Source: Rhizodiscina lignyota
Taxonomy: Eukaryota
Length of the DNA: 64,000 bases
NCBI GenBank assembly: GCA_010015805.1
Contig: ML978127.1
Location: 744,001-808,000 of the forward strand
Reading direction: 5' to 3'
The position numbers were made by a program, and so were the translations under genes. Below are positions 10,731 to 57,160 of the stretch, one piece after another (position 1 is the stretch's first letter; every line of letters starts with the position of its first letter). Below the pieces are notes generated by a model, which saw only the letters and a program-made list of their open reading frames with translations, had not been told where the DNA came from and searched no databases.

Positions 10731-12844
10731 CTTTTTTCCAGAGAGCGTATTAGCGAGGATAGCCGACGTCTGCTGTCTCCGATTGCGGCAGCGTCCTCTA
10801 CAGCATCAATTGAGGAGTGAAGAAGGGGTGAAGCAAAGGGAGGATGATATCGTACACGCGCAAAAGATTGAAATTGTTTTCTTCCCGCAAAATTCTCGAG
10901 GGTCGCTGTGCTGGCTTGGTTTGTTGATTTTACATCAGACCTCCATCAGTCTCGTCGCGGGGGAGCTTCCCCGTGCTCCGATGCTTTTGACCGGGGGTTC
11001 AGGGCGCAAGTGGGTAGCTATAATGTCCAGAAAGCAGAAAACCTTAAATGTTTATGTCAGCTTTGCCTTCTCTGTGCACAGTATCGATGTCCGCAGCTTT
11101 ATTAGAGTTAAGTCAATTCTTTAGGCCTTTTTTTGCAAAAAGGAAGGTGCTATAAGTAGTATTCTAGATTATGAAGCGAAGTAGCTTTTAAAAAAGACAA
11201 AACCATAAACTTCAGGTGGAAGAAGTCGTGATCTATAGTAGGATAATCTATACGTTGATCTGCACGTGACTGAAGAGGCTAAACCAAGTCGGCCTTAGTC
11301 AGGCTTGACGGTCTAGACATTATAACGAAAGCCCTCAGGGGCCGCAGCCGTGGTTATCGTCTACCGAGCTTCTCGCCATCTCTCGCCATCTCCGATGCCC
11401 GAGCTTACTGCTTGTGCTTCTCAAAGCTTTCTTATCAACTTTGAAGCGACTTCGCTGCATTCGCCGAATTCGCTGCCGCAAAGATGAGAAAATGATTCGC
11501 AAAAGAGAGTATGGTCCGAAATCTCGCCGCAACCGAAGGTGCTAAGGAATTCGGGCGAATGGGCCTCATGAGATCGGGCATTACTTGTAGCGCCGACCAG
11601 ACGCCCCTTAGCAGTATTTTTCTGAAGGAGAAGAGCAAAATAATCTATGTTGAACATTCACAAGGGTAAGCTCCGATCCTAGCTTGCTTATAATTCAACA
11701 GCAGTTCAATTGGAGATATTCCTTCCTCGAGCTTAGCGACAGTGACACAGAAGGTACCCCGATGCTCCACCTTGCTCCAGGCTGCTTGAGCTTCGCCGAG
11801 TGATTGAGCTTGCTTCTGCTTGCTTCTTCAGTTTCTTCTATGTATCCGGCACCAAACAAAACTATGATATGTGCTCCAAGTCAGGGCTTTCTTCAGTCTA
11901 TTCAGTCTGCCTTCTTATTCTACAATATTGCTCTCTTCCAGTCTTCCTCTTCTTGCCTGATCATGAAAGCGATATCATCACTAATTAAGTTTGTGTATAG
12001 CTTGCTCGGGCTACTCATCTGATTTGCTGACGACTGTCATGTTTTGATCTTGGGGTCATAAGTCAGAGTCACCGAAATTGGGCCAGCGAGTTCTTTGTTA
12101 GAGTCGAGAAGTCGCCGAATTCAGACACCACGAAGTTCTCGTCCCGAGTTGCTTTCCTTTGTCTAGCAGGCGCTTAATTAGTCCAACCACACCCGTGGAT
12201 AATGCGTGCGAAAGTTGTTCTTGCACTTCCGATTAACGAGACTCCCGCCCTGAGTCCAGACTGTTCAATACTAACTGTACGCCAGTTTACGCATAGAATG
12301 GATCGTGGCTTGGCCGCACGAGATCAAAGATTGAGCTGACTTGGAATTTTCTTCCGCATAGGACTGCTCGAACCTCTGTTAACGAAGCAGCTTTCTAGGA
12401 TTAATTATATATCAGCTGTTCGACTACCAACGTCTATTGGTTGCTCAGATGTTTCAGGCATGGTGTTGACTACGCCCGCAAACGTCACTAACACCAGTAT
12501 CTACGGAAGCTAACGGTTTGACAAAGGGTGTCAAAACACGCTAAACATGATGCAGATCACATAACAAAAAACACTCCACGCTCCTCGGAGATGCAGAACT
12601 TTTTACAACACCTCTTCCCTCCACCACACACCTTTCCCATAACGAAAGCTGCGTCCTGGTCAGTGCGACAACAAACGTCATATTCAGCGTCGTGAATTGT
12701 TTTTCATTGTAGTTGTGTGTCCTTCGACTTGGTTAATCTGCATCAGCCGCTACTCTCATCATGTATAGAAATACCAGAACCCGTGGACAGAGAGACACGC
12801 GCTCTCTCGCGCTCCCATCGCCGTGCGGCATCATCTTCAAGCTC

Positions 12845-28600: not shown

Positions 28601-29812
28601 CGCAGCGGAGGCGGCCGTGACGACGCTCGAAAATGTGTTTGACAATTATAACAAACGAGAGCTTACAGGACAATGCTAACATAAGGTCATCAACACTACC
28701 GCGTCTGGAAAATAGAGTCGAACTGGCCAACGTCTGCCGTCAGATCGGAGGTCGGAGGCTACTTTTAGCTGCACTGGCAGGGGTGCTGCATCAGGGCTCG
28801 CACAGCGCAAGCAACCAGATGTCGCGACTATCATTCCTAATTTCTGGACCAACCATGACCAAGCGGGTTGCGCGTCCGGAGCGTCGTGAAGACACATCTC
28901 TGTTCCTTGGGCAGGATTTCAAAATCGACGGACTCTGTGCCTCCACCGCGAAATTGCGGCAGAGGCAGTCGTGCTGTCGATGTCGATATTGCTCTCTGCG
29001 GCCGTATTCGGACGGGCACAGCCGAGCGCCTCACCCGAACGAGCCACGTCCAACGGCTCTGCGAATTTCAAGCGCACAATGCCATTGTGAGGGTCAGAGG
29101 CCGCGAGAATAGATTAAATCTGCTCTGGCGCTCCACTCTCTTCATATAGCGACGACTCTCTCCAAGCATTCTCGCCGTCCGGCGGAGAGTCCAGCTCACG
29201 CAGGTGCTATAGTCAATATTTTACTTTGCCTCTTGTGGCTAAGCATGCTCGGAATAGGCCATCTGGCCCCACAGCCATGCATTGGCGCCTATTTATGGAA
29301 GCGTGGGCGGACATGGTGTGGAGGGCCGCCGATCCCTGATCCTGACGTCCAGCCGAAAAACACCAGTCGCGTACGCGATCTTCTCACGACACGAGAGCTC
29401 CAGAATAGCTGTCTCGTAACTTGGCGTATGCATCAAACGAGGATCACGATGCAGCTTAACGTATGACCAATTCGCCGTGCTATGCAGCCCTTCTCGCCCG
29501 CACCCTGGCTGCAACGCCGGTGCCATGTACATAATGCCACCGTGAGCCATGAGGGGGCGGTGTTCTCTAAAGATACCCTCACTGCCTCCGTGCGCTTCAT
29601 ATTATTCTCTCTTTCCGACTGGCCAAAGCCTCCGACCTGTTGGTTTTGCTGCCAGTAATATCTCATGTCTCTCCTCTGCTTCACTTCATGCAGCTTCGTC
29701 TTTTCTTCCACTTTCCTCATGCCGGCTAGTCACTGATCGTGACTCTGCCCTAACGTCCTGTTGCATATTTACATTCGTATGATCTAAGTTCTTGGTTCGT
29801 TTCATATACAAG

Positions 29813-32800
29813 ATGGCTTCCCAAGAAGTCGTACCTTTCTCAGCCTTCTCTCCACTGGACATCACCACCAGTGGAGAGACTCCCAACCCTCGACGAAGCC
29901 TTTCGATATTCAGCCGCCGAGGAGCTACACCCAAACCCCAGATCGATCGCCTCCCGAGCATAGTATCGAAGAGGACCTCTATCAGACACTCAATTGCCGA
30001 ACGACGACCCAGCAAGATGTTTAAAACTCGGAGGTCGGAGTCGAAGAGCGGCTCGCAGGGCACAATCTTGAGGGCGGTACCTGAGGCTTGCTCAGACTGC
30101 ACCGGCTTTGGGGCTCGCTCGATGAGCTCTCTAGAGCTTGCAATGGCAACATCGCCGAACGAAGAGATCCTGAGCGCTATTGGCATGCCTTCGCCCGACG
30201 TCACCACGCCTACATCTGCCACTTCCCCATATCTCACCGAACGACCACAACTACAACAAAGCTCACAAGGAACAACAAAGCGTTCCAGAAGGCATTCTGA
30301 GACCAAATCGAATGTCATTGGTATGTGGATGAATGGCCGGACCAAGTGGGTCTCGGATGCGACCACGTCTGCCACATCCAAAGAGAGCTTAGGTGAGACT
30401 GAGGCTATTTCAAGCATTCAAAATTCCGAGACACACGATCCAAAGTCCCGGAGGCCAAGAATACAAGTCATTATTCCAAATGACCGGCTAACTGGACCCT
30501 TCCCTTCCATACCTTTCTTCCAACCTGTAGCCTCATACTCTTCAGTCGACGCCAAAGCCTCAGCAGGATTCGTTTCAACACAGGAGATGCATGTCCCAGC
30601 TGGAGCCATTGGCCGGACCACGACTATTCACATGTCCACATCGGCTCTCGAGCCACACAACCCACAGCCTCAACGACCTTTTGCAAACCTTCCCGTTCAG
30701 CTCAAGGGCCCAGAGCTTGACCTCCCTTCAGTTGCAGCACACCTTACTAGACCTTCACTATCTAATTCCACATCATCAGATGGATCCAACTCGAATACGG
30801 AGGAAGAGGAGGATGACCGGTCCAACTACAGCGCCAGGTCGTCCATGACCAGTGTCAGCAGCGACATGGCTGCCAACCCCGAGCTCCTGAAGCCTAACAC
30901 CCTTCACAAGAGGACTGGTAGCCAGGCCTTCTCGATCACGTCACCAGCTGCAGCAGGTGTCTACGATGACGCCTCCCGAGCTGGTGAAGACTCGCCTTCG
31001 GTTGACAGCATATTCCCAGTAGAGCTCCCAGGCTCACCAGTACCAAATGACAAACTCTCTAGAGCATCATCGCAAGCTTTACCACGTTCCTGGAGCCGGA
31101 AGCGGATGTCCTCTCGACGTGGTGTGAAGCTTTTGACTGCACCGAGGGAAGAACCAGCCACCAAGCCGAACGGCGAGCCACGAACTCCAAGCCCGACACT
31201 CAGTGACGCGGAGAAAGACTTGGAAACCACACTTACCTCAATCGAGGAGAGGGCCTCTCCGAAGCAGGAATGCTCTGAGAACGAGACATCTCCATTGCCC
31301 GAGGTTGTACCAGAGCTTCCTCCCCTTGAAGCCAAACCTCCGACTCCTCCACCGAAATCTGCTCGTCGACAATCGATCCGTCCGCAAGCACTTCGTCCTT
31401 CTGTACAGTCGAGGCAGGCTGAGGAGCTTCTCCGAGCCGACCGTGAGCTAACGGAGCAGGCGAAACTGCGCAAGAATAAGCCAAGTCTGAAAAACTATGG
31501 CCTGCGCAGAATCAATTCGCTGTCCATGCCCGACATTGCCGAAATGGTAAGGTCAGAAACGCCTGACCTGGCGAGGAAGCAACAAGAAATGGCTGAGCGA
31601 CAGATTTCTGCACAACAAGCCGAGGAAGTCATTCTCCATATCATGGAGGCTTTGCAGTCTTTGGACGATCTGGTTAACACGGCTGCTCTGAACAAGGGCT
31701 TCTACCGCGTCTTCAAGCGCCACGAAATCGAACTTCTCAGAGGTGTCCTGAAGAACTCTTCCGCGCCAGCGTGGGAGTACATGGAGACCTGCAGACCCAC
31801 TGAAGACCGCGTTGATGAGGACGGCAGCCCAATCAGCGCCATCCCATCCGACTACACTCCTTCCTCCTATCTCAAATTCTACATTGAATCACACGCCACT
31901 CTTATTTCCTTGAAGGCACTCATTCTGGCAAAATGCCAATCTTTCCTTCGTGCCACTACGGTAATCGCACTGGCCAGCCCCGATCCAGCCATCTCTACTC
32001 GCGTTGACTCGGCGCTTTGGCGCATCTGGACCTTCTGCAGGATCTTCGGCTCAAACCGGAGCCGCGAGGACGACATCGTTGGCCAAATGGATTGGCTTCG
32101 CGGCGGGCAACTCGCACACCAGCAAACATGTACATCAACCATTGTAAGCAGCGACAGCTTTTACCTCAGCAGTGTTCTCTTGAATGCACCCGAGCACTTT
32201 GCGCGGGGAAATGGCAAGAAGGGGCTCGGCGCGGAGGACCTGTATGATATGACCGAACTCTGGAACTGCTTCAACTGGCTTGTGCAAGGTCTTGAGGGGA
32301 GGACGGAGCAGGCAAGGCAATTCGGTGTGTTTGACAACACTGAGGTGCGCGGTGGTGATATTGATGGAGAAGAGGCTATGCTTGGTAAGCTTTCCGATTT
32401 CTTCGAATGGTCACTCAATCATGCGCGGAAATACTTTTGATGATTTCTGTGTATTTCTTCTCTTCATTTCATCTCAAACTTTGTTATTTCCTGCTTTTCT
32501 TTTTAAGTCCTATTTCGAAGAAGAGCACACTTCTCGTTGAAATGATGGAACATTTGCTGATTTGCTATTGCAGAGGAATTCCAATCATACGTCCTCACGC
32601 TTGGCCTTTACCCACTTCTCACCGTCGCCTCCGCACTTCTGCCATCCGATGACAACGCATCCATCGAAGACATTGCCGCAGATCCCACCGCACTTGCCCT
32701 TGCGAAGGAGCATGGCTGGAGTTCCTGGACCCCTCCACCAGCCGGTGGCTCTCGCAGCACTTTCCTTAAGGAGCCTCTCGCACGCTTGTACGAAGAGCGC

Positions 32801-41333: not shown

Positions 41334-43160
41334 TCATACAGCTCCAGGACAAATCTTCAAGCACTGCAACAACTCTTCCACTCTCGCAATTGCATACCCC
41401 ATGCCCGCATCCTCAAGCCCGATCCCAATGACAACTTCATCATCGAGGTAACCCATCTGCATTTCTTCCAGTCCATGCCTCTCCGTTCTCTTTCCCTTCG
41501 CCTTATTCTTCTTGTTCTTATTCCTTCTCCTTGTCTCCCATTTCGCTTCCTCTCTTCCAAACGTATAGCTCACGCTAACCGTATACGTGAAATACACACC
41601 AAGATCCTTTCCCCTCTCCCCTCTCTTGATCGCATCCAACTGCTCCTCGTCACCATCCCAGTTTTCCTCCGCTGAAAAGTCACTTGCACTCTCATTAGCG
41701 AAGAGCAGCGGATGGCGAGTTATAGCAAGCATGTGAAATGGTGGAGTTGCGGACCAGAGCACGAAGTACCGTTCGTACCGCATGGGTAAGCCGAATCTGT
41801 TACCCAATTTGCGCTGTATCACGGCAAGAAAGACGGTGTTGGACTTGGCAGGCTTGCAACTTTCATCGCTCCGCCGACAGAGGATGAGCTTCAGCGAGTT
41901 CGACGTCTGATGCCAGCTCCCCACATTGTCTTTGTCGTAGTGCATTGATGGTAGGTCTTGTACATCTTTTGGTACTGTCTCCACGCAACTTGGCTCCACT
42001 GGACTTGTCAGATTCTCGGAAGTCAGCCCATTGCCGAGCAGTTTGGCGAAAGTGCGCTTGCGTGGCTTGATTTCGTACTGGATGTAGCTCGCCTGGCCTG
42101 GCCCGGCCGAGAAGTACATCCAGTTCTTCTCAATAGGGCCACGACTGTGTGGCGGATTGCGTGTCAGTTCTGTGAGCGTAGGGTAGGACATCAGTGGTGG
42201 TGCCCGTAGCGGGTCATCGTTGCTATTGGTGGCATTTGATATCAAAACATGAAGAGGGTTGTAGAGCGTGCGAAGGTCGACTAGCCAAAGCCCGAAGCAT
42301 GCATAGCGAGACCTGATGGTAAAAAGCCATGTCAGTTTGATATAGAATGGAATGAAGCCTTGATAAAGCTTTACATACTGTGAGTTCGCAATCATCAATG
42401 GCTCTCCCTTGCCGCTCCAGAAAATCCTAGGGTCGTGGAAGCCAGGTATGTCCGGATACGCCTCGAACTCATCAATGCACTTCTCTGCCGGTGTTGGTGG
42501 TACGTTCAGTAGTATTGGCTTCGTCGCACACCGCATCCCTCCTCCAAGTGATACCAGCAATCTCAAGTCATCTGCAGTACATGGCTGCTCCCATTTCTTT
42601 CTCCCATTAGGCGATCCAGTATAGCAAATGTTCGCTTCACAGAGAACGTTCTCTTGGTGCAAGCCGGAGGTGATGATTCGCGATACGATGAGATATTGGT
42701 TTGGCGACCAGTCCGGAAGTGGTATGATCGTGGGATTGAAGAAGACTCGAGTGTCGTCCAGGTTGTCAGGCGGTGTCATCGAGATGTTGAAAATCGGTGA
42801 TGCCGTCAGTCGACTGTGGCCAGTGAATCTGTTCGGCTTGATTGGACATTGGCTGAGCGGCTCGAGATATCTCTCGGTACTTGTGCTGTTGTTGCTGTTC
42901 GAAGGTTGGGGGGAGTGATGCGTGTAGTGGTACGACAGGGCAGGCGACTGATGGTTCTTCCGCGGGCGCTGGAAGGGAAAGACATGCTGATTGAGATCTG
43001 AGAACGGTATGCGGAGAAACAGTTGAAGTTGGAGCGACCGCTCGAAGATGTGAGACACATGAGGGACGTAGCTGTGAGAAAGGGCGCGATACAAGACCAC
43101 GAGAGCAAGACACAGAAGAGAAGGGACGAAAAAGCGGCGAAGAGACGGAGCGTACAACAT
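41334..43160 (-). CDS. Type II membrane protein, putative glycosyltransferase (beta-mannosyltransferase/GH130-like motifs); in-frame intron 42313-42378
   Basis: N-terminal signal anchor (FFVPSLLCLALVVLY). Motifs FFNPTIIPLP, GFHDPRIFWSGKGEPLMIANSQ and IEKNWMYF. The gene is well supported; the function is inferred. Confidence 0.7.
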   Translation of the reverse strand: MLYAPSLRRFFVPSLLCLALVVLYRALSHSYVPHVSHIFERSLQLQLFLRIPFSDLNQHVFPFQRPRKNHQSPALSYHYTHHSPQPSNSNNSTSTERYLEPLSQCPIKPNRFTGHSRLTASPIFNISMTPPDNLDDTRVFFNPTIIPLPDWSPNQYLIVSRIITSGLHQENVLCEANICYTGSPNGRKKWEQPCTADDLRLLVSLGGGMRCATKPILLNVPPTPAEKCIDEFEAYPDIPGFHDPRIFWSGKGEPLMIANSQYVKLYQGFIPFYIKLTWLFTIRSRYACFGLWLVDLRTLYNPLHVLISNATNSNDDPLRAPPLMSYPTLTELTRNPPHSRGPIEKNWMYFSAGPGQASYIQYEIKPRKRTFAKLLGNGLTSENLTSPVEPSCVETVPKDVQDLPSMHYDKDNVGSWHQTSNSLKLILCRRSDESCKPAKSNTVFLAVIQRKLGNRFGLPMRYERYFVLWSATPPFHMLAITRHPLLFANESASDFSAEENWDGDEEQLDAIKRGERGKDLGVYFTYTVSVSYTFGREEAKWETRRRNKNKKNKAKGKRTERHGLEEMQMGYLDDEVVIGIGLEDAGMGYAIARVEELLQCLKICPGAV

Positions 43161-43539
43161 GGTGCGTGTCTCGCAGAAAGCGCAAACAGTAAGGAACGAA
43201 GTGGAAGATGACACGAACATTGACATGAATGTGCATATGGAGAAGGCAAGGCATACTCCTGCATTAGCAAGTGCTACCTTACGCGCCTTCCTCTAGGCTT
43301 CAACAGCCCTGGCGCATCAATTCTGATGACGAATATCTTTAAACAGCCTTGTGAATCCCCTGGGATTTATGTACACTGCTTAGAGGACTCGAAATCCGCG
43401 TGGTATCGCAGCAAGGCCCGAAAATGCTGCACCTTTTCCGCCTTTACAATTCCCGGTAACGGTATCATAACGAATCGAAAAGCGCCTTAACAATGCTAAT
43501 GCAACCATCAAACCATTTCTCTGTCATGAGAGGTTTACG

Positions 43540-44949
43540 TCAACTCGCTGTGCTTGAAGCCTCATCGCTGACTTTTTGCTTCTTCTTTGGTGTGTTCTCC
43601 GCATCATCATCCTTATCACTTTCCCTTTCCCGCTTCCCATTCTCCGGCTTCACTTTCGACCCGTTTTGTCCTCCAGGTTTCGGTGGCCTCTTCGCGGGTG
43701 TGCCCTCTTTCGTAGTCGGGACACTCGTTTGCGACGGCTTCATCTTCAATACGATCCTCTCCTTGTCCACACTCTTATCTTTATCCTTATCTTTATTCTT
43801 GTCCTTGTCCTTCTCTAGCTTCTCCTGGCTCTGACTGTTAGCCAATGTCTCGCTCGAACTTTGTGCTGCCAGTCTCTCTCGATCCGCCTTCTTGACATAT
43901 TGCCTCTTCTTTACCTTCTTGAGGGGGATATCCTCCAGCTCGTCTCCATCGTCGTCGTCACGGTCTCTCTTCTGTCCTTTCGCCTCGCCCTGATTGCCAG
44001 GACCGGGAGTGCCGGGTCGACTACCCATAGGTGTGCTGCCCATACTTCCGTTCTGCCCACTCAGCTTTGCCATCGCATTTCGACTACTCTGCCTTCCGCT
44101 AATGCCCAGGCACTTCTCCAAGTGTTGCGCGAATCTCGTAATCAGCAGACTCCTCTTGCACCTTGGACACGTATGCCACGGGATGTAGTTCGCGCCTTTA
44201 CTCTGCGGTTGTAGCTTATTGATGCCGTTCTGCACCTGCACGCTTTCGGAGTCTTGTGTGCCACCCTGCGGATCGCTGTTCTGGCTTGCGGGCGTAGAGT
44301 CCTTCTCTGCCCGTGCTTGCTGCTTGATGAGCTCGCGTTCCTTCTTTGTCTTCGCTTGGTCGGTCGGAAACGGCATGCCATACACATCATGGCCGGATTT
44401 CGACACGAATGGGTGGCGTGTGCAGTATTGGGCGTTGAGATCGTCGGGCATCTGAGCGCCGACACCGGAGAGCGGGTATAGGAGACGAGGAAGACGACAT
44501 TGTGGACAGTATATTTGAGGCGTGCTGCGGAGAGGGTTGCCCTTCAGTGTTATGAGGCCATCATTGTACGTCGCACCCGGTGTTTCGACTTTGCCAATCT
44601 TCGCAGTTGTAGGGGTGGGCAAGGAGTTGGAGGGTTTGGTCGGTGTTTCGGAGGATGGGTGAGGAGATTGGAGTTGTGATGACGATGCTGCCATCGAGAC
44701 CTGAGTGGCAGCGGACTGCATTCGTAGGAGCTTCTCGGAGCGATGGGTTTGGAGGACGACGTCGTGGATGATGTTGTACATGGTATCCTCGAAGACAGAA
44801 GTTACCTACAGTTGATTCATGTTAGCTTTGTCAAATTCGTGCCATCATGGCAAGAGTAGACGTACTACTGATGAAAATGTACTTTGTGATATCTGGAGCT
44901 TGGAATTTTCTGACGGCCCCGAGCCGTCGGCTGCGTCTTCTTGCGACAT
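43540..44949 (-). CDS. SGF11: SAGA deubiquitination module subunit Sgf11-like protein (intron 44806-44865)
   Basis: N-terminal helix YNIIHDVVLQTHRSEK and zinc finger TCPRCKRSLLITRFAQHLEKCLGISGRQSSRNA. Confidence 0.85.
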
Positions 44950-46240
44950 TGTGAGTGTGGCGGGTGTAAGATGTAGATGCCTGGTCTGGGAGGCCGAGAA
45001 TATTGGTTTGTATGCTGCCCTTTTCTGTCAAGGAGGAGGGCAGAATGCAGGATGTTCGAGTATTGTTCTATTGTCAGGAGCGTTGGTTCGTGAATGACGC
45101 AGCGGACAATAGCGCTTTCTCGGAAAATAACTGGCGATCCTCCCTGAGCCGCAATGCGGCCACCACCGCCTTCCCCGAGTCTTGAATCCGATACACTCCC
45201 CTCCTCACGCTTCCATGCTATGTCCGTAGAAATCGAGGATGGATGTATGTGTCGAAAGGTCGCGGAGCGTCAGGTCGCTCTTCGGGGCGGAGAAGTTTCG
45301 CTTGAGGGATGCAGTGTCCGGAGGAGGTGATTACTGATCGAAGGCGGTGCGAGACGCTCAGATAGCCGTATGGTGGAATTATTCCTCCAGAATAGCCAGT
45401 ATTGCTCGTTGGCAGCGGTTCCTGGATGGATATATGTGCGGAAGTGCTGTGTGGAGGTGCGGCTCTTCAGTCTCGTGTGCTGGATTTAGGACGCTGTCGC
45501 GCTAACGCAAGCCATGCGGGCCCTCCCGCTTGGCCGTAATCTGGCCAATCGCTCGTCAGGGACGCCCGTCCACTCCCACTCCGCACCTAACTTTCCCCGC
45601 TCTTGGAAAAAGCTTAGGCGGATGTTGGATATTGCCATCTGCATGTGGGGAAACTCTCCGCACGCTGTCGATGGTGGTACAGCAATCGATGAGGCATGTT
45701 CAGGCGCAAATGCTACTTCCCGCCACCTTGTGCTGTCCAGCAGTACAACTTCAGGTAAAGGGTCTTCTGAGCAGGTAGGACAAGAGCCCAACCTTTGGTG
45801 AAATGGGCCCGGAAGCGTGCTTCTGCGGTTTGCTACATGGCCTCCCACATCAGTTGGCCCTGACACGGGAGCAATGCTTCTCCACCCGCCCCGTTCATTG
45901 AGAACGACCGGGACTGTCACAAGTCATTCTCCAACCCAGATTGGACACAAGTCTTAGGATCAAAAAATTGTCTAACAGAGCGGGATGTAACGCTCTGCTA
46001 TGTGCTATCAGCTATGTTCACTCCTCCACACATTTATTCGTTCGTCCAATACCATTGTCGGTCGTTCTACTGCAAGAAATTCTTCATACAAACAATAGCG
46101 TGCTATTCACTTGACGAGTTGGTCATCGGACATCCTGTTGTCAATCATCGTGATCTGCCGTTCTTCCTGGATGCCCTCGGCGGTAGCGCTCTGTAGAAGT
46201 CCCTCAAGGCCGAGCAAAGTCTGTATCTAGCCGAACGGAT

Positions 46241-46360
46241 CAGTGATAGAAATGTACTGGATCTTATCTGGATTAGACTGGATATCTAGTATCATGTAAT
46301 CGAATAATATGGATCTGGATTTTGGATATCCATTTGATCCAGTGGATATCCAGTGACTGG
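46241..46360. mobile_element. Possible DNA-transposon terminal remnant (CAGTG start, dense TGGAT/GGATATCC subterminal repeats)
   Basis: About 8 copies of (C)TGGAT or ATCCA motifs, in both orientations, within 120 bp. No transposase or matching second end is visible. Confidence 0.35.
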
Positions 46361-46936
46361 CCATTCAAGGCTAGAAGATGATATAAGAGATTTCTTCCTG
46401 AGCGAGTGCGGTTTTATGACATCTGAGGAAAGCTTGGGCGATGGTTGGAGTCTCTGTAACTGTGCAAGACAAAGTCGAGGGATATAACTCATGCTTGAGA
46501 ATGTATTCTGACAGCTACTTGAGGACAGTGCTCCCTGCGAACAGGAACACGATTCCTTTCCTAAACTTGATCTAAGTCATCGACCGGGAGGAGGTCGGAC
46601 ATCGACGACACCTGGGAGGAGTAGGATTCTTTGTTTGCCGAGGCCGAATATGATGATGGTGCCGAGGGAGCCGACACGGTACAGGGAAACACGGCGCCCT
46701 TCGACGGCATACCCTCCGCCGCTTTCTGTTCTTCCGTGTTGAATTCATCGATGGTGGAGTATCCGGTCAGTCTTTTGAGGTCTTTGTCCTCAGATGCCTT
46801 TATGGGGACGATTGGATATGAAAAAGGAGGCTTGTTGATGCCTGTGATTGCCATTTGAATTGATGATATCTGATTGTGAAGCACTGGAGAGCGGAGTAGA
46901 GCGTTTGAGTGTCCAAGTGTGCAGGTTAGAACCTCG

Positions 46937-47773
46937 TTACATCTTTTTCGCCAATCCCCCGAGTATGTAGCAGTCGTCAGGATCTCCTTCGACTTTGTCA
47001 CCATCATCGACCCTCCACGCGCCAACGTTAGCTAGTCCTGGCTCTTCCATCTCCCATCCATCACGTTTGAAGATCTTATTAACGATTTCCTGTTCGGTCC
47101 TGCCGTAGGTATTCGTGGAGGCCGCACGGTACTGTTCTGCGACCTGCTCGCCCTTGTCTTCGTCGTATCTGAACTTGCCGTCTTCCGGCGTGTAAAACTG
47201 CGAGGCTGCAAAGTAGCTTCTTGAACAGGCCGCGTTTCGGATTGGATCTATGATAACCGGAAGCTGCGCGTCCGAGAAGAAATGTAAAAGAGATATCATG
47301 AGTATCCCCACAGCTTGCGAGAAATCAATAAGCTGCCGGACATCGGGGTGATCAAGTATCTCTTGCGGATGCAAACAGCTCTCAATGACAACAGCTGAAT
47401 TCTCATCCTTCGCCAAGATCTCTGACCCCAAGGTCTTCACAATCTCTTCATGGTCGACGTACACTACACGCGCATTCGCTTCCCCGAGGACCTCCTGTGC
47501 GATTTCATGCGTGTTGCCATTGGTGGGCAGGCCAGACCCAATGTCAAGGAATTGTCTGACACCTTGGCGTGCCATGAATCGAACAACTCGCCGCAAGAAC
47601 CCACGGTTCATTCGAGCCATTAATGAAATTGTGGGAACGGCATCGAGAGCTTTCTGTGCCGCTGCACGATCAACGGTGCTGTTGTACTGACCGCCCAGGT
47701 AATAATCGTACATGCACGGGACATGTGGGCGGCTTGTGTCGATGATGGTGGAGAGGTATGTCTCGTCAATCAT
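46937..47773 (-). CDS. SAM-dependent methyltransferase, actinobacterial Methyltransf_19 (DUF574) type, intronless
   Basis: IDTSRPH-..MYDYYLGG..N..VDRAAA, ARMNRGFLRRVVRFMA, GVRQFLDIGSGLPT-GNTHEIAQ, ARVVYVD, LIDFSQAVGIL..SLLHF, EPGL..V..WR and YILGGLAKK. Confidence 0.9.
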   Translation of the reverse strand: MIDETYLSTIIDTSRPHVPCMYDYYLGGQYNSTVDRAAAQKALDAVPTISLMARMNRGFLRRVVRFMARQGVRQFLDIGSGLPTNGNTHEIAQEVLGEANARVVYVDHEEIVKTLGSEILAKDENSAVVIESCLHPQEILDHPDVRQLIDFSQAVGILMISLLHFFSDAQLPVIIDPIRNAACSRSYFAASQFYTPEDGKFRYDEDKGEQVAEQYRAASTNTYGRTEQEIVNKIFKRDGWEMEEPGLANVGAWRVDDGDKVEGDPDDCYILGGLAKKM

Positions 47774-49333
47774 GTTTGTGCATCAAGCGCGCCGTGGGCC
47801 GTCGCTTGTCGAAGTAGACGAAGGTTTGTCCCTAGCCAATCGACGCCTTTCAAATAGGGTCCTAACGATTGTCACTTTCCTTGTGTCCGTGTGGGGATCT
47901 GTTCAATCTGATGAAGAAATATAAAGATTAGCAACTGGCAATCCACCAGGTGGTTACGTTCTGGCCCTGATGAAACAGTTGAGCGGTATATTTTGAGATG
48001 CATATATGACTTGAAACGACGATGAAATGCCAAAAACTCCGATTGTCAACGAGCAGGATTTCCGGTTTTGTGGTTTTGTCACACCTCAGATGCGAACTTG
48101 ACCACAATCCCCACTTTGGGGTTACGTCGACATGTCGTACGATACAGGTGATGAAGCCGATCCCCTCTGCGCCTTAAATCTTCAACGACGATCTCATCAT
48201 TGCGTGATTGAGAAGTCGAAGCTGAGACTCGCGAGGAACAACATCGCTTCGCCTGAAGCAACGAACACAATGAAATGTGTAGCATCTTTCACCGTACTCT
48301 AATTTGCAGATCACGCGTCTTGCAAGGAACTCAGCAAAGCGAAACAAAGCGAGTAGCGAGTTGCTGGTATGTATCTTCAGATTCGGGCCTATCGTACCGG
48401 CATCACGAGTCAGCTGTCTCGGTGTTACAATTCCATGAGTAGGTTGCCTGGACCGTTGGAACCACTCCGTATGCATCGCTTCGTTCAGAACAGGCACGGC
48501 CACGGGCAGCTGTGCATATATTCGCCCCTCCTCGAAGTGTTGGCCTTCGTGGCGTCCGGGGGACACTCCGATGCTTCTGTTCTGTGCGGATTAAAGCGGA
48601 GAAGATGGCAGGCGACCCCTCTTGTCCTCTTGTGAGTATGAGGCGGTGATGGTTTAGTTCCCGCCAGCAGGGCGAACCGGCTTGATCGGCAAGTGCTCCG
48701 ACTGAAGAATTGGAACAAAGTGACGGGGACGGGACCAGCATGTGGCACATGAGAGATACGTGGATAGATAGGGAACTCAGGGACTAGTGTGCTGGAGTAC
48801 GCTCGGCAGATTACCTGAAGAAACGACGAGATACTAGATAGACACTGGGAAAAAAGTGCGAAGTGACTAAGCGCTTGCCACGATACCAGAGCAAGCACGG
48901 CGGCCTTGTGATGATGCTGGCCTCGTGGGAATAAAGGGACGATGCTCGGGGTAGTCGACCTGTGGCGGGGAGGGCGTTGTCCACATTGCTCACGCATGGC
49001 AGCTCCGCGCGCTCTAGAAGGCCCCGGGGCTGCGGTGCCACCAGCAGGGCCACTTGGGCATGAGAGCGTGTGCGAATAACGGCTGCACCGCTGAGTTTGC
49101 TCGCGTATCTATTCGTTATCGCGCGCCGTATCATGCAGCAGCAGCGGATGGGCGTGAGATGAGCCTGGTTAGTCCCCACGTAATTCCGCTCCCCTCCCAC
49201 CTTCACAGGCCAGTCCACACCCAACTCCAGATTGTTCGTCAGTCAGAACCTTCCCCACTGCCTGCTTGCGAATCTGGGTCGCTGCACTTGAGGTCGAGTC
49301 GAGTATGGGACACGCGCCTTGAGCGACGCTCTT

Positions 49334-52009
49334 ATGGCAGAAACGATCACCATTCCCTCGCCTTCTGTGTTTCTCGATCCTCGCCCGTCCCCGCTCGAGC
49401 AAGCTGCTGCAAAAAGCGGCGCTGCCACCGCCAATGGCGGCCCCAAGACCAACAACGCGAAGAGCGATGGCGCGGCGAAGAAGCGAAATGCCGTTGCGAA
49501 ACCGTCGCAATCGGCCAAAGATGAGACCACGAAGGTGAACGCTGACGGAGTGACCAAGAGGAAACAATCAAAGAGCCGTAACGGTACGCCGTGATTCCAT
49601 TATGACGAATTGGAATGAGTGCACTTTGCTGATAACAAAATCTCCGCAGGCTGTGTTACTTGCAAAGCGAAAAGACTCAAATGCGATGAGTCGAAACCTA
49701 CCTGCCAACAGTGCACGAGAAGAAGTGTGACGTGTGGAGGATACAAGAAGGACTTCAAGTGGCGACCATTCGAGGAAACTGCATACACCAGCAAGGCACC
49801 ACCAGGAAAAGTGAAGAAGCGTAAGCGTCTCAAGAACTGATTGTCATTTGTTGCGCATTCACTAACACCCCTTCACAGCCTCTCCACCTCCACCTACGTC
49901 GACGACCGCGCCGATAAAGCAGGATAGCCCGACCGCATCGAAAGATGTTACCCTTCCTCCCACAGATATGCCCATGGACACACTCTCCTCTACCCCTACC
50001 GCCTTCGCACACCCTAACTTTCCTTCCCCAAGCCAATTGCTTGATCTCGATCCCCCATATGATGATGCGCCGACATCTGCGGACGTACAAGAACCGTTTG
50101 ATCCTGGACCTGTTGATCCGGGCCCGATGCGGAACATAGATCCTATGCTCGAGGATAGCATACCGATTGTCCCCGAGAATACTGCATCGTCGAGCTTATC
50201 GTCAGGCCAATCACCTCGTCTTATCGACCTTTTGCTCCCAGGAACAGACCTGAACCTGCCAAATCCTGAGTATGTGGATTATAGGGCCCGCTTTCCCGAC
50301 GCAATGTACCAGCCTGTTATGCATGAAATCACAGAGGCGATGGTCGAAGAGGAGGGAGACATTGAGGAGGTTATTCGCCATCATCCATCGTTCTCGGATG
50401 GGTTAAATCCAGAGCATGAGGCGTGGGTGATGCGACTCCCTACACCACCAATTTCTTCTTCGTCCTCGAGCTCTTCGGAAGGTACGATGATCAATCCATC
50501 CACGAATCCGTGGACATATATGGTTCGAGAACCCTTGTTCTCGCCCAGCTCCCCGGAAATGTTGACGCTACGTTTCGACCGCCAAACTTGTGGCGTTCTA
50601 TCTGTCAAAGATGGCCCGACAGAGAACCCGTGGCGCACTCTCATTTGGCCGCTCGCACGCGACAATTCCGCTCTCTACCACGCTATCGCGAGCATGACTT
50701 CTTTCCATTATGCTCGTGAAGAGCCAGGCTTGAGAGTTCAGGGTATTGAGCATATGCGCACCAGCATCAAAGCCCTTGCACAGGGCATTGGAAACATGCG
50801 CCTTGATACTGCAATTGCCACGACGCTGGCCCTTGCTTTCTCTGAGAGTTGGGACCAGCATATTTCTACTGGTATCAACCACATCAAAGGCGCCAAGATT
50901 CTCGTGAATCAAGCGCTCACGAAGCACCGCCGCTCTCCTTATGGTGGAGAGGAACTTTCGCGCTTCAAGTTCCTTGCGAATACGTGGATATACATGGACG
51001 TCATCGCACGCCTGACATCGGTAGACGAGGATGAGAGCAACGACTTTGAGTTCGTCTTCTCCGAGCTCTCAGATCCGTTTGGGGCTGAAACCCAGCTGGA
51101 CCCTTTGATGGGATGTGCTGGCAGCTTGTTTCCGATCATTGGTCGTGTCACGAATCTCGTGCGCAAGGTTCGACGGACGCTATCCAATTCGCCGGCCATC
51201 ATCAGCCAGGCGCTTGATCTGAAGACACAACTTGAAAGCTGGATACCTCCGTCGTTCTTCGATCCTCCAGAAGATCCGTGCTCGGCAGTTGAGCACTCTC
51301 TTCAAACGGCCGAGGCGTACCGCTGGGCTACGCTCTTGTATCTTCATCAAGCTGTTCCGGAAATTCCGTCAGCCAGCTCTGCAGAGCTTGCGAAGAAGGT
51401 CATGATATATCTCGCGACCGTTCCGCTTGGCTCACGTGCCATTATCGTGCAGATCTACCCACTTATTGCGGCTGGATGCGAGGCCTTTGATGAAGAGGAC
51501 AGGCAATGGGTGCGGGATCGCTGGATGTGGATGGCTCGAACGATGAAACTTGGTATCATTGATCGCTGTGCGGAGGTCGTGAAAGAGGTCTGGGATCGAC
51601 GCGATTCGTATGAGCCACGCTCGCCGAAGAGGCGTAATGCTTCGACTGTGCCACCAGGCTCACTCAAGCGTGGCTTCAGCCTTGACGAAGACGATGTGGG
51701 CGATCCGTTTCAATGGGATGTTGATGATATTTTCGGTGGCGGCAACAGTCGCAATGGTGGAGGGAAGCGTCGAGCTACCACTGGAGTTTATGACGTCCCT
51801 CACGCCTTGAGACTCTCGGCGTCTGGACCAAGGATCAGGAAGAGCTCCACTGATGCGGATTCGCCTGGCGGTATCGACCCCGAGTTTACTGTGAAGGGTA
51901 GCCTGCATTGGATCGGGGTCATGAAGGACTGGAAGTGGGAAGGTACGGTCACTTCACTCTACTCGAATCGAAGCATGTCACTGACATTTAAGCAGTTTTG
52001 CTAGGTTGA
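49334..52009 (+). CDS. Zn(II)2Cys6 transcription factor with Fungal_trans_2-type domain (Acr-2-like); introns 49584-49649, 49821-49878 and 51943-51995
   Basis: SRNG|CVTCKAKRLKCDESKPTCQQCTRRSVTCGGY, ENPWRTLIWPLA, WIYMDVIARL and DPLMGCA. Confidence 0.92.
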
Positions 52010-53864: not shown

Positions 53865-55027
53865 ATCGGAGCATGGTTCGGAGTCGTCGATGTTGGATGG
53901 CTCAAGGAGCTGAGAAGAGAGGAGATTACCAGACACTCCAGACCCACGATGGTCGGAAACGGATGGAGAAAGACGGAACACATCTGGGGAAGGGTAAAGT
54001 CAAGCTGATTATGCTGACATGACAAGAAAATAAAACTATTGAATCGAAGGCTATCCTGGGCCTCATTATATTTCAAATTTCCCTATGTGCCAAGATCGCC
54101 CTTGAGATAAGCGCAAGCGCACGCCCTTCTGCTGATATTGTTCCTTACCCTTGAAAGACGGCTCCGACATGAATGTTTTGTAAGACTTCAGTGCACATTT
54201 TGAAGTGCTGAGTGATTAAGGCTAACGTAACCTATGCCATTTTCGAACAGCGTCGCTTGAGGCAAATAATTGAATTAACAGGAACCTAACTCTACCAGGC
54301 TCTTATGCTATTCAAGACACAATAAGTATAGCTGCACTTTCGGCTACCTACCTAAGAGAATTGGAGATAATTATATAACATGTAAGCTGGATTGTTAAAG
54401 CTATCCTTTGCTGATCGTGGCCGCAGTTTGAGTTTCTGTCGAGGACGAGGAGTTAAGGTCCGATTGTATGATTTCGCGAAGTGGAACGAGATGCTCCGGC
54501 CAATCGTACTGTGTTATATCTACGCTTTCATACCCGACAGAAGCCCGCTCAATTCCACCTTCAACATCAAATGAGTTGCATTGCTGTCCATCACTGCGTT
54601 CATATACCCGCAGACGTTCTGACATTAGAGTCGCTGCCGGGAAATCCGTAGACATTGTGCATACTCGCACATCGACTCCCGAAGAAGAGACAAGCGCATG
54701 GTATATTTTTATTGACTTTACCTTCATGGAGGAATTTAAATGGGCTGGCGAATGGAAATAGCTCACGAGCACGAGCCGTCCAATGGGATGGATTCGGCAA
54801 ACTCCGCTAGAAATGGCCGCTAAGATGAAAGAGCACTAGCGCCAACATGAGGGGAATCCTCAGCTTCACCCATCATCGCGCCGAAACGTTTAATTTCTTC
54901 AACTTCAAACGACTCTGCGCCTCGCTCTACCCTCTCGTACTCACCGCGGCCTGTAACCTCCAATTTCGACATGTAGACGTAACGCGCACGACTGCCTCCA
55001 GGCCCTGTATACCTTGCACCAACCGCA

Positions 55028-57160
55028 ATGAGCCTCTTTCAACCTCACCCTACCACAGCGGCTACCGCGTCGAATCGTACCACTTCCATCGAAGCCATGC
55101 TGGCGAGCCAGTTGACGGAGCAATTGCGTAGCCAGAGCAGCCAGAGCGACCATGGAGGGGCGAATTCCCAAGAGGAGTCAGGCAAAGGCTCCGTATACGC
55201 CGTCCGGACACCTTCCAAGTCGCCGTCCAAAGCGCGCTCTCTATCCGACTCCACGCCAAGATTGTCACCGTCTCCGAACATCAAAGAATCGATCAGAAAA
55301 TCGAAAGATGATCATACAATAGAGACGAATCCAAAAACTCCAAGGAGGCCGGACTTCCTTGCGAGAGGGCTGTCTCTGCAAATGCCATCCAAGCAAGGCT
55401 CGCCGAGCACGGGTCTGCTTCCCTCTCGCGGCCCATTATCTCCAAAGCTGGATTCACGTAACATCTACAGCTCTCCCGCATCTGTGTTGCCCCGCCATTC
55501 GCGAGGTCTAGACTTCTCACGAGCGTGCACGAACCTTCATCACTCCACCGTCGCCGAACAATCCTCTCCCGACTCTTCACCGACCATAACACAGAAAGCT
55601 ATCGCTATCCCTCCACGATCCTCACTTTCGCATAGTTCTATGATCCTGGATTCACCACAAATGAATAGCGGGGCTTGGACACATGCAGGAAACAAGGACA
55701 AGTCAATGGCCTCGGGCTCAGTCAGCAGCATTAACATGCTCGATTCGTCATCAAGTGACTCTGATGGAGGCGACCCAATGGAAGGCGACGACAATGACGA
55801 CCTCATGATTTCAACACCTCAAGCGTATAAGTTGAATGACGCGTCGGCTCCAACACCTTTTGCCGCAGCACCAACGACGCGTCTTTGGCCCGGCCCCGGG
55901 ATTGCCGCGCCATCAAGCTTCATGAGCTTCCAGAGAGCGCGATTGAGGCATCGGCGAAGCAGACACAGTTCAAGTAGCGCGAGCGGCCACAGCTCATTGG
56001 CGAGCCCTATTCCGCAGTCTCCGCCAAATGGACGCGCCGATGGCAATTCATATTTTGCAAGGGAAATAACCCGGAAAGCCGCTTCGCGGAGAGAGTCTCT
56101 GAGCCTTGGTACAAGCGATCTACATATCTCTTCGGGCAATGATAGCGGCGACGAAGCGGGGCAGTCTGGTGTATCAACACCTGGTGTCGTACAACGGCCG
56201 GTGACCAGGCGGACGAACATGCTGGTAAATATCGTGGATGGCAAATTGGAGAACACATACACTGATGTATTGCAGCCCAAGTCGCGTGCGTTTGGCCGCA
56301 TTCGCGCTGAACTCATTGAAGAGAGTTCTCCAGTCGACACAGAAGTACGCCGCGAAGCCCAAGTCGTCCGACAGGTCCGTGAGAGCGATCTCAATATTGA
56401 CCAGCCTCAACAAGGCGGTGAAAGTTCTCCGATTCTGCCAGCCGCTCCGGATGGGCTAGACGACATACCAGAAGGGAACCCCCTAGGGACCAATGTGCCA
56501 GGCGCTCCAAAGGGTTTATTCGGAGCATTCTCTCGTCAAGCGTTCAAGAATTCGATTTCTGGAGGAAAGGACTTTTGGAACAACTTCGACAATCAGATTC
56601 GCACACCGCCACCGCCATTTTTCCCTCGAGCAGGTTCTTCAACTGTGAGCGATGATATTAACATGGATTCACCAACGACTTCGTCCTCTACACCTTCGAC
56701 GATGCTCTTCTCGACTAGTCTTCCACAGCCGCAGGAACAAGCGAAAGAAAATAACGTGGGATTATCTTTGTCCCGAGCTTCGACTCCTCAACCTCCTGCT
56801 CCGCCGCCGTCTGCTGCTGAAGGTATACGTAAGAACAACAAACGTCGCCGCGATGACGACTTGGACGGAATGTCTATCAAACGCCGTGCCGTCTCACCAG
56901 GCATGAGCGTACAGAATAGCCCTATACTCTCACAATCTCCCGGAAACCGAGAGACCAACCTCTGGGGCCAGCCACATTCGCAGAGCCAAGCAAAAGCTTC
57001 ACGAGAGGGTTCAGTGACTGGACATGCAGCAGGACAAAGGAGTGATAGCACTGGTAGCCAAGCAAGTGTGGTCCCGGCTATTGGCCCGTTGGGGAAAAGG
57101 ATTGGAATGCAAGGAATGACAGACACTAATGATGGGCTTATGAAAATGAGTATTGAGTAG
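55028..57160 (+). CDS. Conserved fungal S/P-rich hypothetical protein (probable in-frame intron 56225-56275)
   Basis: Long ORF with conserved-looking blocks LPRHSRGLDFSRACTNLHHST, RRTNML|PKSRAFGRIRAEL.EE, KRRAVSPGMS and DTNDGLMKMSIE*. Confidence 0.8.
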   Translation: MSLFQPHPTTAATASNRTTSIEAMLASQLTEQLRSQSSQSDHGGANSQEESGKGSVYAVRTPSKSPSKARSLSDSTPRLSPSPNIKESIRKSKDDHTIETNPKTPRRPDFLARGLSLQMPSKQGSPSTGLLPSRGPLSPKLDSRNIYSSPASVLPRHSRGLDFSRACTNLHHSTVAEQSSPDSSPTITQKAIAIPPRSSLSHSSMILDSPQMNSGAWTHAGNKDKSMASGSVSSINMLDSSSSDSDGGDPMEGDDNDDLMISTPQAYKLNDASAPTPFAAAPTTRLWPGPGIAAPSSFMSFQRARLRHRRSRHSSSSASGHSSLASPIPQSPPNGRADGNSYFAREITRKAASRRESLSLGTSDLHISSGNDSGDEAGQSGVSTPGVVQRPVTRRTNMLVNIVDGKLENTYTDVLQPKSRAFGRIRAELIEESSPVDTEVRREAQVVRQVRESDLNIDQPQQGGESSPILPAAPDGLDDIPEGNPLGTNVPGAPKGLFGAFSRQAFKNSISGGKDFWNNFDNQIRTPPPPFFPRAGSSTVSDDINMDSPTTSSSTPSTMLFSTSLPQPQEQAKENNVGLSLSRASTPQPPAPPPSAAEGIRKNNKRRRDDDLDGMSIKRRAVSPGMSVQNSPILSQSPGNRETNLWGQPHSQSQAKASREGSVTGHAAGQRSDSTGSQASVVPAIGPLGKRIGMQGMTDTNDGLMKMSIE

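Follow-up and report, generated by a model that had tools for sequence, protein, structure and literature searches.

A solitary PF04672 methyltransferase gene of probable actinomycete origin, ameliorated in the genome of the Dothideomycete Rhizodiscina lignyota

The genome of the wood-dwelling Dothideomycete Rhizodiscina lignyota carries, at 46937..47773 on the minus strand of the window (the whole 64-kb stretch of DNA that was analysed), an intronless coding sequence of 278 aa, stop codon included in the coordinates, that is assigned to the class I, SAM-dependent methyltransferases of family PF04672 (Methyltransf_19/DUF574). The reading frame opens with an ATG, and an in-frame TGA four codons 5' of it makes an upstream extension impossible, while the absence of introns follows from the end-to-end alignment of the product with bacterial homologues. 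The match to the Pfam profile (E 1.1e-62, 212.5 bits against a cut-off of 26) extends over nearly its full length (positions 5-267 of 268); an NCBIfam search with the methyltransferase returned zero family matches. A preliminary description of this DNA had proposed an intronless 278-aa ORF of the Methyltransf_19/DUF574 family on the basis of a series of motifs, and this reading is borne out, as every quoted motif is found in the translation (IDTSRPHVPCMYDYYLGGQYNSTVDR, NRGFLRRVVR, GVRQFLDIGSGLPTNGNTHEIAQ, ARVVYVD and EPGLANVGAWR).

The gene lies between two genes of fungal type. On one side, a spacer of 2.15 kb (44782..46936) separates its stop codon from the start of an Sgf11-domain gene (43540..44781, minus strand; PF08209, E 9.4e-13), annotated as a subunit of the SAGA deubiquitinase module and contained in a single 413-aa ORF. 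On the other side stands a Zn2Cys6/Fungal_trans_2 transcription factor gene (49334..52004, plus strand), with the PF11951 domain (E 1e-53) in the ORF at 49968..52004 of the same strand, the Zn2Cys6 motif at 49652-49735, and two canonical GT..AG introns at 49584-49649 and 49821-49878, for which a CACTAAC branch site could be read. Both flanking genes had been described as intron-bearing; this holds for the transcription factor and not for Sgf11, whose reading frame is uninterrupted, with no intron seen. The 1.56 kb that extend from the methyltransferase start to the first ATG of the divergent Zn2Cys6 gene (47774..49333) presumably hold the promoters of both. Between 44790 and 49320, no Pfam domain reached the cut-off in the 21 ORFs scanned out of 52 of at least 50 aa (the two best had E 0.03 and 0.06), and the repeats in the flanking DNA are short two-copy matches only, so that neither a mobile-element relic nor a co-transferred bacterial ORF was seen around the gene in these ORFs and in the repeat search. 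Likewise, no biosynthetic cluster is evident among the larger ORFs of the window.

The base composition of the gene is that of its host, as had been noted before. The GC content of the ORF region is 0.51-0.52 against 0.515 for the window, and its GC3 of 0.58 nearly equals the mean of the host (0.586, sd 0.078), for which, as for codon usage, 16 ORFs of the window served as reference. The methyltransferase has a codon-usage score of 0.018, where the host ORFs average 0.035 (sd 0.031); thus, in the comparison that the preliminary description had recommended, both measures fall within 1 sd of the host ORFs. Bacterial homologues are very different, with a median GC3 of 0.935 (range 0.76-0.98, n=80), and the amino-acid make-up differs too, the GARP/FYMINK values being 0.26/0.25 for the methyltransferase and 0.35/0.17 for the bacterial median. 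Fully host-like codon usage in a gene whose bacterial homologues are so rich in GC3 supports the earlier proposal of an old, ameliorated transfer and suggests a long residence in the fungus.

The relatives of the protein are for the most part actinobacterial. A protein search gave 5716 matches at E <= 1e-3; among the best 120, five besides the query share 52-73% identity with it, and the remaining 114 share at most 47%, those with organism names being all actinomycetes. At least seven close relatives (P0002-P0006, P0121 and P0392) were found in total, at 51-73% identity, all other listed matches being at or below 47%, and the nearest named relatives among the matches listed are all Actinomycetota. 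In agreement, a scan of prokaryotes (185,579 species genomes) confirmed at least 600 loci, the best 80 of which all belong to Actinomycetota, with identities of up to 47%. The family comprises 6880 representatives (clusters) at E <= 1e-3 and, as had been claimed, is expanded in actinomycetes, where it is large and often multi-copy: five actinomycete genomes have 25, 4, 5, 8 and 8 matches, compared with none in 14 control genomes, and a match occurs in 19 genomes out of 201 sampled evenly from Actinomycetota.

In fungi, the distribution is patchy rather than broad. The matches listed include two named fungi, at 39-40% identity, and fungal-like sequences amount to about a dozen among the 328 family proteins examined, a lower bound for the fungal membership as the lists are confined to the top 120-150 among more than 5000 matches. 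Two lists of the best 120 contain no named fungal protein at least 50% identical to the query, other than the window's own, and in metagenomes no relative was confirmed when the window protein or P0392 served as query. For comparison, most of the best 120 matches of KRS1, encoded in the same window, are named Pezizomycotina. Aulographum hederae, of the same order, is among the KRS1 matches and absent from the listed methyltransferase matches, which is no more than suggestive. The seven closest relatives are themselves putatively fungal, given their position in the tree between two named Dothideomycetes together with their amino-acid make-up. Make-up was rejected as a proof of fungal origin in its own right, since a protein from a Chloroflexi MAG (P0215) has the same one. 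As copies are also carried by these seven relatives, by Zopfia rhizophila and by Penicillium samsonianum, the transfer probably predates the species R. lignyota.

Phylogenetic analysis places the fungal protein beside a defined group of actinobacterial proteins. In a careful IQ-TREE analysis of 64 rows, the window protein and its seven relatives form one 8-row clade (support 100/100) on a long stem of 0.8 substitutions per site, and this clade joins an actinobacterial orthologue group drawn from several orders with a support of 93/96; two quick trees, of 98 and 96 rows, have the same topology. All trees are unrooted and lack an outgroup, so the evidence for nesting of the clade comes from a midpoint root of the bacterial rows and from the parsimony of the distribution. 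Midpoint roots obtained from the bacterial rows alone fall 8 and 4 nodes away from the point of fungal attachment, which leaves the clade several nodes inside the paralogue diversity. Minimum-variance rooting chose long terminal branches and was set aside as uninformative. The topology was further examined by AU tests (iqtree2, LG+F+G4), in which the four constrained searches were stopped at 120-130 s; the resulting trees may be suboptimal, which biases the tests towards rejection, and still none was rejected at the 5% level. A tree with a single fungal origin (p 0.50) is indistinguishable from one with several (p 0.48), and forcing the clade together with a deep paralogue group costs 33.8 lnL units (p 0.07). 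Thus, the ML phylogeny and topology tests that the preliminary description had called for favour the actinobacterial group as sister of the clade, with the alternatives marginally disfavoured (p 0.07-0.08).

Taken together, the data make it probable that an ancestor of R. lignyota gained the PF04672 methyltransferase gene horizontally from a bacterium, most probably an actinomycete, and that the gene has since been ameliorated and is likely functional. Acquisition from an actinomycete, as first proposed, is supported by the actinobacterial nature of the best prokaryotic loci, by the grouping in the trees and by the linkage of the gene to fungal ones; from these data we infer both the direction of transfer and the identity of the donor. 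The donor would most probably have been a mycelial, large-genome actinomycete and the recipient an ancestor of the species rather than R. lignyota itself. The gene would then have been fully ameliorated in base composition and codon usage and have gained a fungal-type start context, and it now stands alone beside a Zn2Cys6 regulator.

A first alternative, which we regard as unlikely, is that the donor was a moderate-GC bacterium outside the actinomycetes, for instance a relative of Chloroflexota, and that some or all of the relatives at 51-73% identity are bacterial; the transfer could then be more recent, with little amelioration needed. Some sets among the Atlas clusters of PF04672 do have Chloroflexota as their most frequent phylum, P0215 from the Chloroflexi MAG is low in GARP and high in FYMINK like the members of the clade, and a tree constrained to unite the clade with the Chloroflexi-type rows survives the AU test at the 5% level (p 0.08). 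That tree is however 29.9 lnL units worse, and in all three IQ-TREE analyses P0215, P0183 and P0142 stand elsewhere, whereas the clade groups with the protein of Zopfia rhizophila and with the actinobacterial orthologues; in addition, no phylum other than Actinomycetota is represented among the 80 best prokaryotic loci.

The actinobacterial orthologue group comprises proteins of 261-278 aa (e.g. P0007, P0011 and P0019) from Actinomadura rubrobrunea, Actinoallomurus, Planotetraspora, Nonomuraea, Sphaerisporangium, Saccharopolyspora, Micromonospora, Cryptosporangium and Couchioplanes. Its members are the best-scoring named relatives listed, covering 87-99% of the query at 42-47% identity, and are sister to the clade in every tree (SH-aLRT 92-94, in addition to the support in the careful tree); they differ from it in having a GC3 of about 0.94 rather than 0.58, short branches in place of the long fungal stem, and none of the insertions of the clade. 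Two further fungal members are named. The DUF574-domain-containing protein KAF2186687.1 of Zopfia rhizophila CBS 207.26 (P0181) groups with the clade of the window protein (86/94), while XP_057140767.1 of Penicillium samsonianum (P0148) branches within the actinobacterial group, on a stem of 1.2, with weak support for its placement (63-68). Both are encoded on Mb-sized contigs and have a low-GARP make-up like the window protein, with which they share only 39-40% identity. Transfer of single metabolic genes from bacteria to Pezizomycotina is a well-known class of events, and the present case resembles its known examples in being a solitary intronless enzyme gene, patchy in fungi, with bacterial nearest relatives and a host-like composition. 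A literature search by the family identifiers PF04672 and DUF574 found no report of a transfer of this family, the papers retrieved not concerning fungi.

Two structures of the family have been solved, those of Tfu_2867 from Thermobifida fusca (PDB 2qe6) and SAV_2177 from Streptomyces avermitilis (PDB 3giw), and the fungal protein matches both in sequence (E 3.8e-41 and 1.4e-34, respectively). Its predicted fold is that of a class I Rossmann methyltransferase with the N-terminal helical extension typical of the family: the AF2 model (pLDDT 76.6, pTM 0.79, with pLDDT 48-62 over the N-terminal 50 residues) is matched by Foldseek to 2qe6 with TM 0.81/0.84 and to 3giw with TM 0.79/0.83, all further matches having TM values of 0.57 or less, and an Atlas model has pTM 0.90. 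The three proteins have in common the N-terminal MYDY..GG..N..DR helices and the DIGxGxPT motif. In the structural alignment the identity of the fungal protein to the two bacterial ones is 33-35%, and, apart from its eukaryotic host, it differs from them by a Cys in VPCMYDY and by two clade-specific insertions, one of some 5 aa around residue 200 and one of 2 aa ahead of DGWEM. As the preliminary description had held, the frame is uninterrupted throughout and the SAM motifs are intact, namely the glycine-rich DIGxGxPT that follows strand 1 and the acidic residue that closes strand 2 (YVD); the AF2 model has strands at 74-78 and 102-107. In an alignment of 10 sequences D77, G79, G81, D107 and D150 are invariant, the first four of which we take to be SAM contacts from what is generally known of class I methyltransferases.

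Since most of the residues conserved in the family are retained, including the SAM-binding motifs, the protein most likely still binds SAM, with a small molecule as its methyl acceptor, and it is probably functional. PMC2954221 reports that 3giw contains an unknown phenylalanine-like ligand, and proposes a role for this protein as a small-molecule N- or O-methyltransferase. The literature search by family identifiers found no substrate for any PF04672 member, and a role in detoxification is speculation. It is improbable, on the other hand, that the intact-looking ORF is a decaying relic of an old transfer, not expressed or not active as a methyltransferase. Points in favour of a relic are the long stem of the clade and the alteration of 10 out of 51 sites, chosen for a conservation of at least 90% in 52 bacterial rows; among the changes are DP to EE just past the SAM-ribose-binding YVD strand and the replacement of a conserved H by Q. 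Against it, the other 41 of these 51 sites are kept, a far higher proportion than the 32 of 106 variable sites that agree with the bacterial majority; none of the eight clade members is truncated, and seven of them have 83 invariant columns in common; and the usage of codons remains that of host genes. Moreover, both crystallised members of the family also lack the conserved His, which is thus not essential to PF04672. The window protein shares with its three nearest relatives the loss of some residues that are conserved elsewhere (R to C, DP to EE, H to Q or L), and its function may be altered or reduced.

Vertical descent from an ancient fungal or eukaryotic ancestor, with near-total loss, or a transfer from fungi to bacteria appears very unlikely. 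As the tree is unrooted, a root on the fungal stem is formally possible, and the placement of all fungal-like rows in one clade is compatible with the data (the p-AU of 0.50 given above). Nonetheless, both bacteria-only midpoint roots lie off the fungal attachment point, a dozen or so fungal-like sequences stand against thousands of representatives of a bacterial family with many matches per actinomycete genome, and KRS1 finds the named Pezizomycotina that the methyltransferase, among the matches listed, does not find at 50% identity or above.

As previously claimed, the gene is integrated among fungal genes and is not part of a separate bacterial contig. Indeed, a contig of 1,995,651 bp carries it together with KRS1, an SRP receptor gene, Sgf11 and the intron-bearing Zn2Cys6 gene, and the KRS1 of the window is 100% identical to the NCBI protein of Rhizodiscina lignyota. 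A separately assembled Logan contig of 39,399 bp spans window positions 43000-50442 with 0 differences and joins the gene to both flanks, at a depth of 149.7 against 155.9 for the adjacent contig; the run behind it may be the genome assembly's own source and is therefore no independent sample. Bacterial contamination or a chimeric assembly, in favour of which nothing was found beyond this possible identity of the runs, is effectively refuted by the 2-Mb fungal context, by the even depth and perfect agreement across both flanks, and by a GC3 that misfits an actinomycete contaminant at about 0.94.

A more elaborate reading, unlikely as a whole, may also be put forward. A single ancient transfer from a bacterium to Pezizomycotina would have founded a fungus-specific PF04672 lineage, of which only the Rhizodiscina clade and the copies in Zopfia and Penicillium samsonianum would remain, scattered among species. 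The function would have shifted, in the subgroup of the window protein, with the loss of the conserved His and of the DP motif and with the gain of Cys20 and of the clade-specific insertions. As one possibility, the enzyme might methylate and thereby neutralise a metabolite of actinomycetes that share the wood or soil niche, and it may be under the control of the divergently transcribed Zn2Cys6 factor.

Collectively, the locus represents a clean and well-delimited case of probable interdomain transfer into Pezizomycotina, as it involves a single, fully ameliorated gene with a recognisable putative donor phylum; the case is ordinary, and the understanding of horizontal transfer in fungi is otherwise unchanged. 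Its interest lies with the family, which is large and actinobacterial and has a few eukaryotic members. As each fungal host appears to have one copy, compared with up to 25 matches in an actinomycete genome, a fungal knock-out would probably not be masked by paralogues, and the fungal copies may thus offer a tractable route to the function of PF04672.

The methyltransferase gene of the window is an ATG-initiated open reading frame (46937..47773(-), from the ORF scan) that encodes 278 aa and starts in the context ...CACAAACATGA, with an in-frame TGA four codons 5' of the ATG. PF04672 (Methyltransf_19) is the sole Pfam family found on its product by hmmscan (E 1.1e-62, 212.5 bits for a cut-off of 26 bits, profile positions 5-267 of 268), and no NCBIfam model matched. 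The protein also matches by sequence the two solved DUF574 structures, 2qe6 (Tfu_2867, E 3.8e-41) and 3giw (SAV_2177, E 1.4e-34), and as these alignments span residues 8-11 to 258-277, the frame represents a complete, intron-free gene. It is a genuine member of PF04672, and the preliminary description of an intronless 278-aa frame of the Methyltransf_19/DUF574 family holds, including its series of motifs, all of which are present in the translation. An 18-nt inverted repeat (46468-46485 and 46982-46999, 89% complementary), which has one arm within the 3' end of the coding sequence and its second arm some 450 nt past the stop codon, is probably due to chance.

The gene lies between an Sgf11-domain gene assigned by Pfam (43540..44781(-)) and a transcription factor gene whose first ATG is at 49334. 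In the latter, two introns that are canonical in the DNA, 49584-49649 (GTACGC...CAG) and 49821-49878 (GTAAGC...CACTAAC...CAG), link three frames into a single gene carrying both the Zn2Cys6 motif (CVTCKAKRLKCDESKPTCQQCTRRSVTC, 49652-49735) and the Fungal_trans_2 ORF recognized by Pfam (49968..52004(+)). Both flanking genes had been described as intron-bearing, a term that applies to the transcription factor and must be limited to it, because Sgf11 is one uninterrupted 413-aa ORF. The proposed integration among fungal genes is confirmed by a 39,399-bp Logan contig from one public run, which bridges both flanks (window 43000-50442) with 0 differences and at a depth of 149.7, similar to that of the adjoining Logan contig (155.9); this is a check of the assembly and not an independent sample, since the run may be the genome's own source. 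The 2.15-kb and 1.56-kb spacers flanking the gene contain no Pfam-recognisable relics (21/52 ORFs of >=50 aa scanned) and no repeats beyond short two-copy matches.

Elsewhere in the window the sequence is typical of a fungal chromosome, with genes for an MFS transporter, PrpD, DUF6604, an HLH factor, SRP receptor alpha, lysyl-tRNA synthetase and an ankyrin protein. The lysyl-tRNA synthetase (KRS1) ORF is 100% identical to an NCBI protein of Rhizodiscina lignyota (Dothideomycetes, Aulographales, Rhizodiscinaceae), and its next best matches, from Aulographum hederae, Saccharata, Phyllosticta, Botryosphaeria and others, reach only 62-68% identity. No connection with the methyltransferase is evident for either the PrpD/MmgE (2-methylcitrate dehydratase-type) gene at 9056-10507(-) or the DUF6604 gene at 12737-15331(+), and the larger ORFs scanned included no PKS or NRPS. 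Three long frames without a Pfam match at E <= 0.001 (29783-32440(+), 41334-43292(-) and 54983-57160(+); 885, 652 and 725 aa) presumably encode lineage-specific or low-complexity fungal proteins.

The composition of the gene is host-like, as the preliminary description had proposed. Its GC1/GC2/GC3 values are 0.59/0.38/0.58, with a host GC3 of 0.586 ± 0.078 in 16 ORFs of the window, and its leave-one-out codon-usage score is 0.018 versus 0.035 ± 0.031 for the host. The coding matches at 80 actinobacterial loci have a median GC3 of 0.935 (range 0.76-0.98). GARP/FYMINK is 0.263/0.248 in the window protein versus a median of 0.35/0.17 in the 90 tree-set rows outside the clade, which include two subsequently named as fungal. 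Assuming a high-GC actinomycete donor, the gene has been completely ameliorated.

A word-indexed search with the window protein retrieved 5716 proteins at E <= 1e-3. Of the best 120, the query aside, five (P0002-P0006, singletons from Logan or ENA assemblies) show 52-73% identity; the remaining 114 are at <=47%, and all organism names among them are actinomycetes. An exhaustive search of representatives (6880 cluster representatives at E <= 1e-3) added P0121 (55%), and a profile of the seven clade members added P0392 (51%, JGI metagenome), with no named fungi among the best 120 matches of that profile. Across 185,579 prokaryote species, one genome each, there are 600 confirmed loci, and the 80 best all belong to Actinomycetota at <=47% identity (Micromonosporales 30, Streptosporangiales 23, Pseudonocardiales 7, Mycobacteriales 5, others 15). 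Five actinomycete genomes contain 25, 4, 5, 8 and 8 PF04672 matches and 14 control genomes none. Of 201 evenly drawn Actinomycetota genomes, 19, for the most part large, carry the family. Among neighbours in the ESM Atlas, bacteria account for 95-100%, with Actinomycetota or Chloroflexota the most common. Two PF04672 domains occur in tandem in many bacterial proteins, and in one the family matches three stretches (P0122-P0127, P0130, P0390, P0391 and P0393-P0397; 545-917 aa, P0397 441 aa); in Atlas clusters the domain is also fused to a BTAD transcriptional-activator domain, a hint that some members of the family act in regulation or sensing.

Further fungal copies emerged from a low-GARP, high-FYMINK screen of 328 family proteins, which set apart 15 outliers. 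These outliers include P0181, a 'DUF574-domain-containing protein' of Zopfia rhizophila CBS 207.26 (2.1-Mb contig), P0148 of Penicillium samsonianum (XP_057140767.1; 4.45-Mb contig), P0183, P0185 and P0142. Counting R. lignyota, these two fungi bring the named Pezizomycotina with PF04672 to at least three. Make-up alone was rejected as proof of fungal origin because the outlier P0215 comes from a Chloroflexi MAG; P0215, P0183 and P0142 form a moderate-GC Chloroflexi-type subgroup, similar to the fungal copies in make-up and placed elsewhere in the tree.

That the window protein, P0002-P0006, P0121 and P0392 (the eight) form a clade is firm. Seven of them already had an SH-like support of 100 (stem 0.62) in a FastTree of 309 rows, and in a quick IQ-TREE (LG+C20+F+G4 PMSF; 98 rows, 30 of them paralogues drawn from five actinomycete genomes) the eight score 100, with the Zopfia protein as sister (94). 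Together they are sister (92) to a tight actinobacterial orthologue group (98) with members in Streptosporangiales, Micromonosporales, Pseudonocardiales and Cryptosporangium, inside which the Penicillium protein falls. A 96-row quick tree concurs (97 for the ten-row clade of the eight, Zopfia and P0185; 94 for the sister relationship), with the Chloroflexi-type rows elsewhere. In a careful 64-row tree (UFBoot/SH-aLRT), the eight obtain 100/100 (stem 0.815), the ten 86/94, the orthologue group including Penicillium 77/94 and the union of the two 93/96. A midpoint root on bacterial rows only, without a true outgroup, falls 8 (98-row) or 4 (64-row) nodes from the attachment point.

AU tests under LG+F+G4 readily accommodate a single clade of all fungal-like rows (dlnL 5.8, p-AU 0.50), hence a shared origin of the Penicillium copy and the Rhizodiscina clade, as well as a grouping of Zopfia/P0185 with the actinobacterial group without the eight (dlnL 8.5, p-AU 0.48). 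Joining the eight to the Chloroflexi-type rows (dlnL 29.9, p-AU 0.08) or to a deep paralogue clade (dlnL 33.8, p-AU 0.07) fares worse. The affinity of the eight to the actinobacterial orthologue group is the best estimate and only marginally significant. The actinomycete origin first proposed is favoured by the union in the 64-row tree and by the best 80 prokaryote loci, and tempered by these last two alternatives. The Penicillium protein and its near-identical Logan counterpart P0448 have a very long stem (1.0-1.25) within the short-branched orthologue group, where the position of the Penicillium protein scores 63-68 in the 64-row tree; this Eurotiomycete copy may represent a second, independent bacterium-to-fungus transfer, and fungi may have gained the family anywhere from one to three times.

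Integration, patchy distribution and amelioration, all criteria of horizontal transfer, are observed here; as to nesting within the donor group, point estimates favour it, in trees lacking an outgroup and with two alternatives at p-AU values of 0.07-0.08. Transfer of single enzyme genes from bacteria to Pezizomycotina is a well-known phenomenon, and the window protein is already in NCBI and UniRef. No literature reporting PF04672 transfer to fungi was found, and the word 'horizontal' is absent from the searched passages of the R. lignyota genome paper (PMC7082219).

The AF2 model (pLDDT 76.6, pTM 0.79) shows the alternating strand-helix core of a class I methyltransferase with four helices N-terminal to it. 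Foldseek ranks 2qe6 (TM 0.81/0.84) and 3giw (0.79/0.83) at the top, followed after a gap by ML2640c (0.54-0.57) and by small-molecule O- and N-methyltransferases of natural-product and plant metabolism (about 0.45-0.5). D77, G79, G81, D107 and D150 are invariant in fungal and actinobacterial sequences. The window protein retains 41 of 51 sites conserved at >=90% in 52 bacterial rows (39-45 in the other eleven fungal-like rows) and, of 106 variable sites, shares the residue of most bacterial rows at only 32, a sequence pattern that would be expected under purifying selection. Among its losses are R to C (in VPCMYDY), DP to EE (after YVD) and H to Q (in AASQ); this His is missing from both crystallised members as well. 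In the literature searched, the only functional lead is a remark on 3giw, which is said to bind a phenylalanine-like ligand of unknown identity and may be an enzyme like PNMT, HNMT or COMT (PMC2954221). Fold and retained residues make it somewhat probable that the R. lignyota protein is an active SAM-dependent small-molecule methyltransferase.
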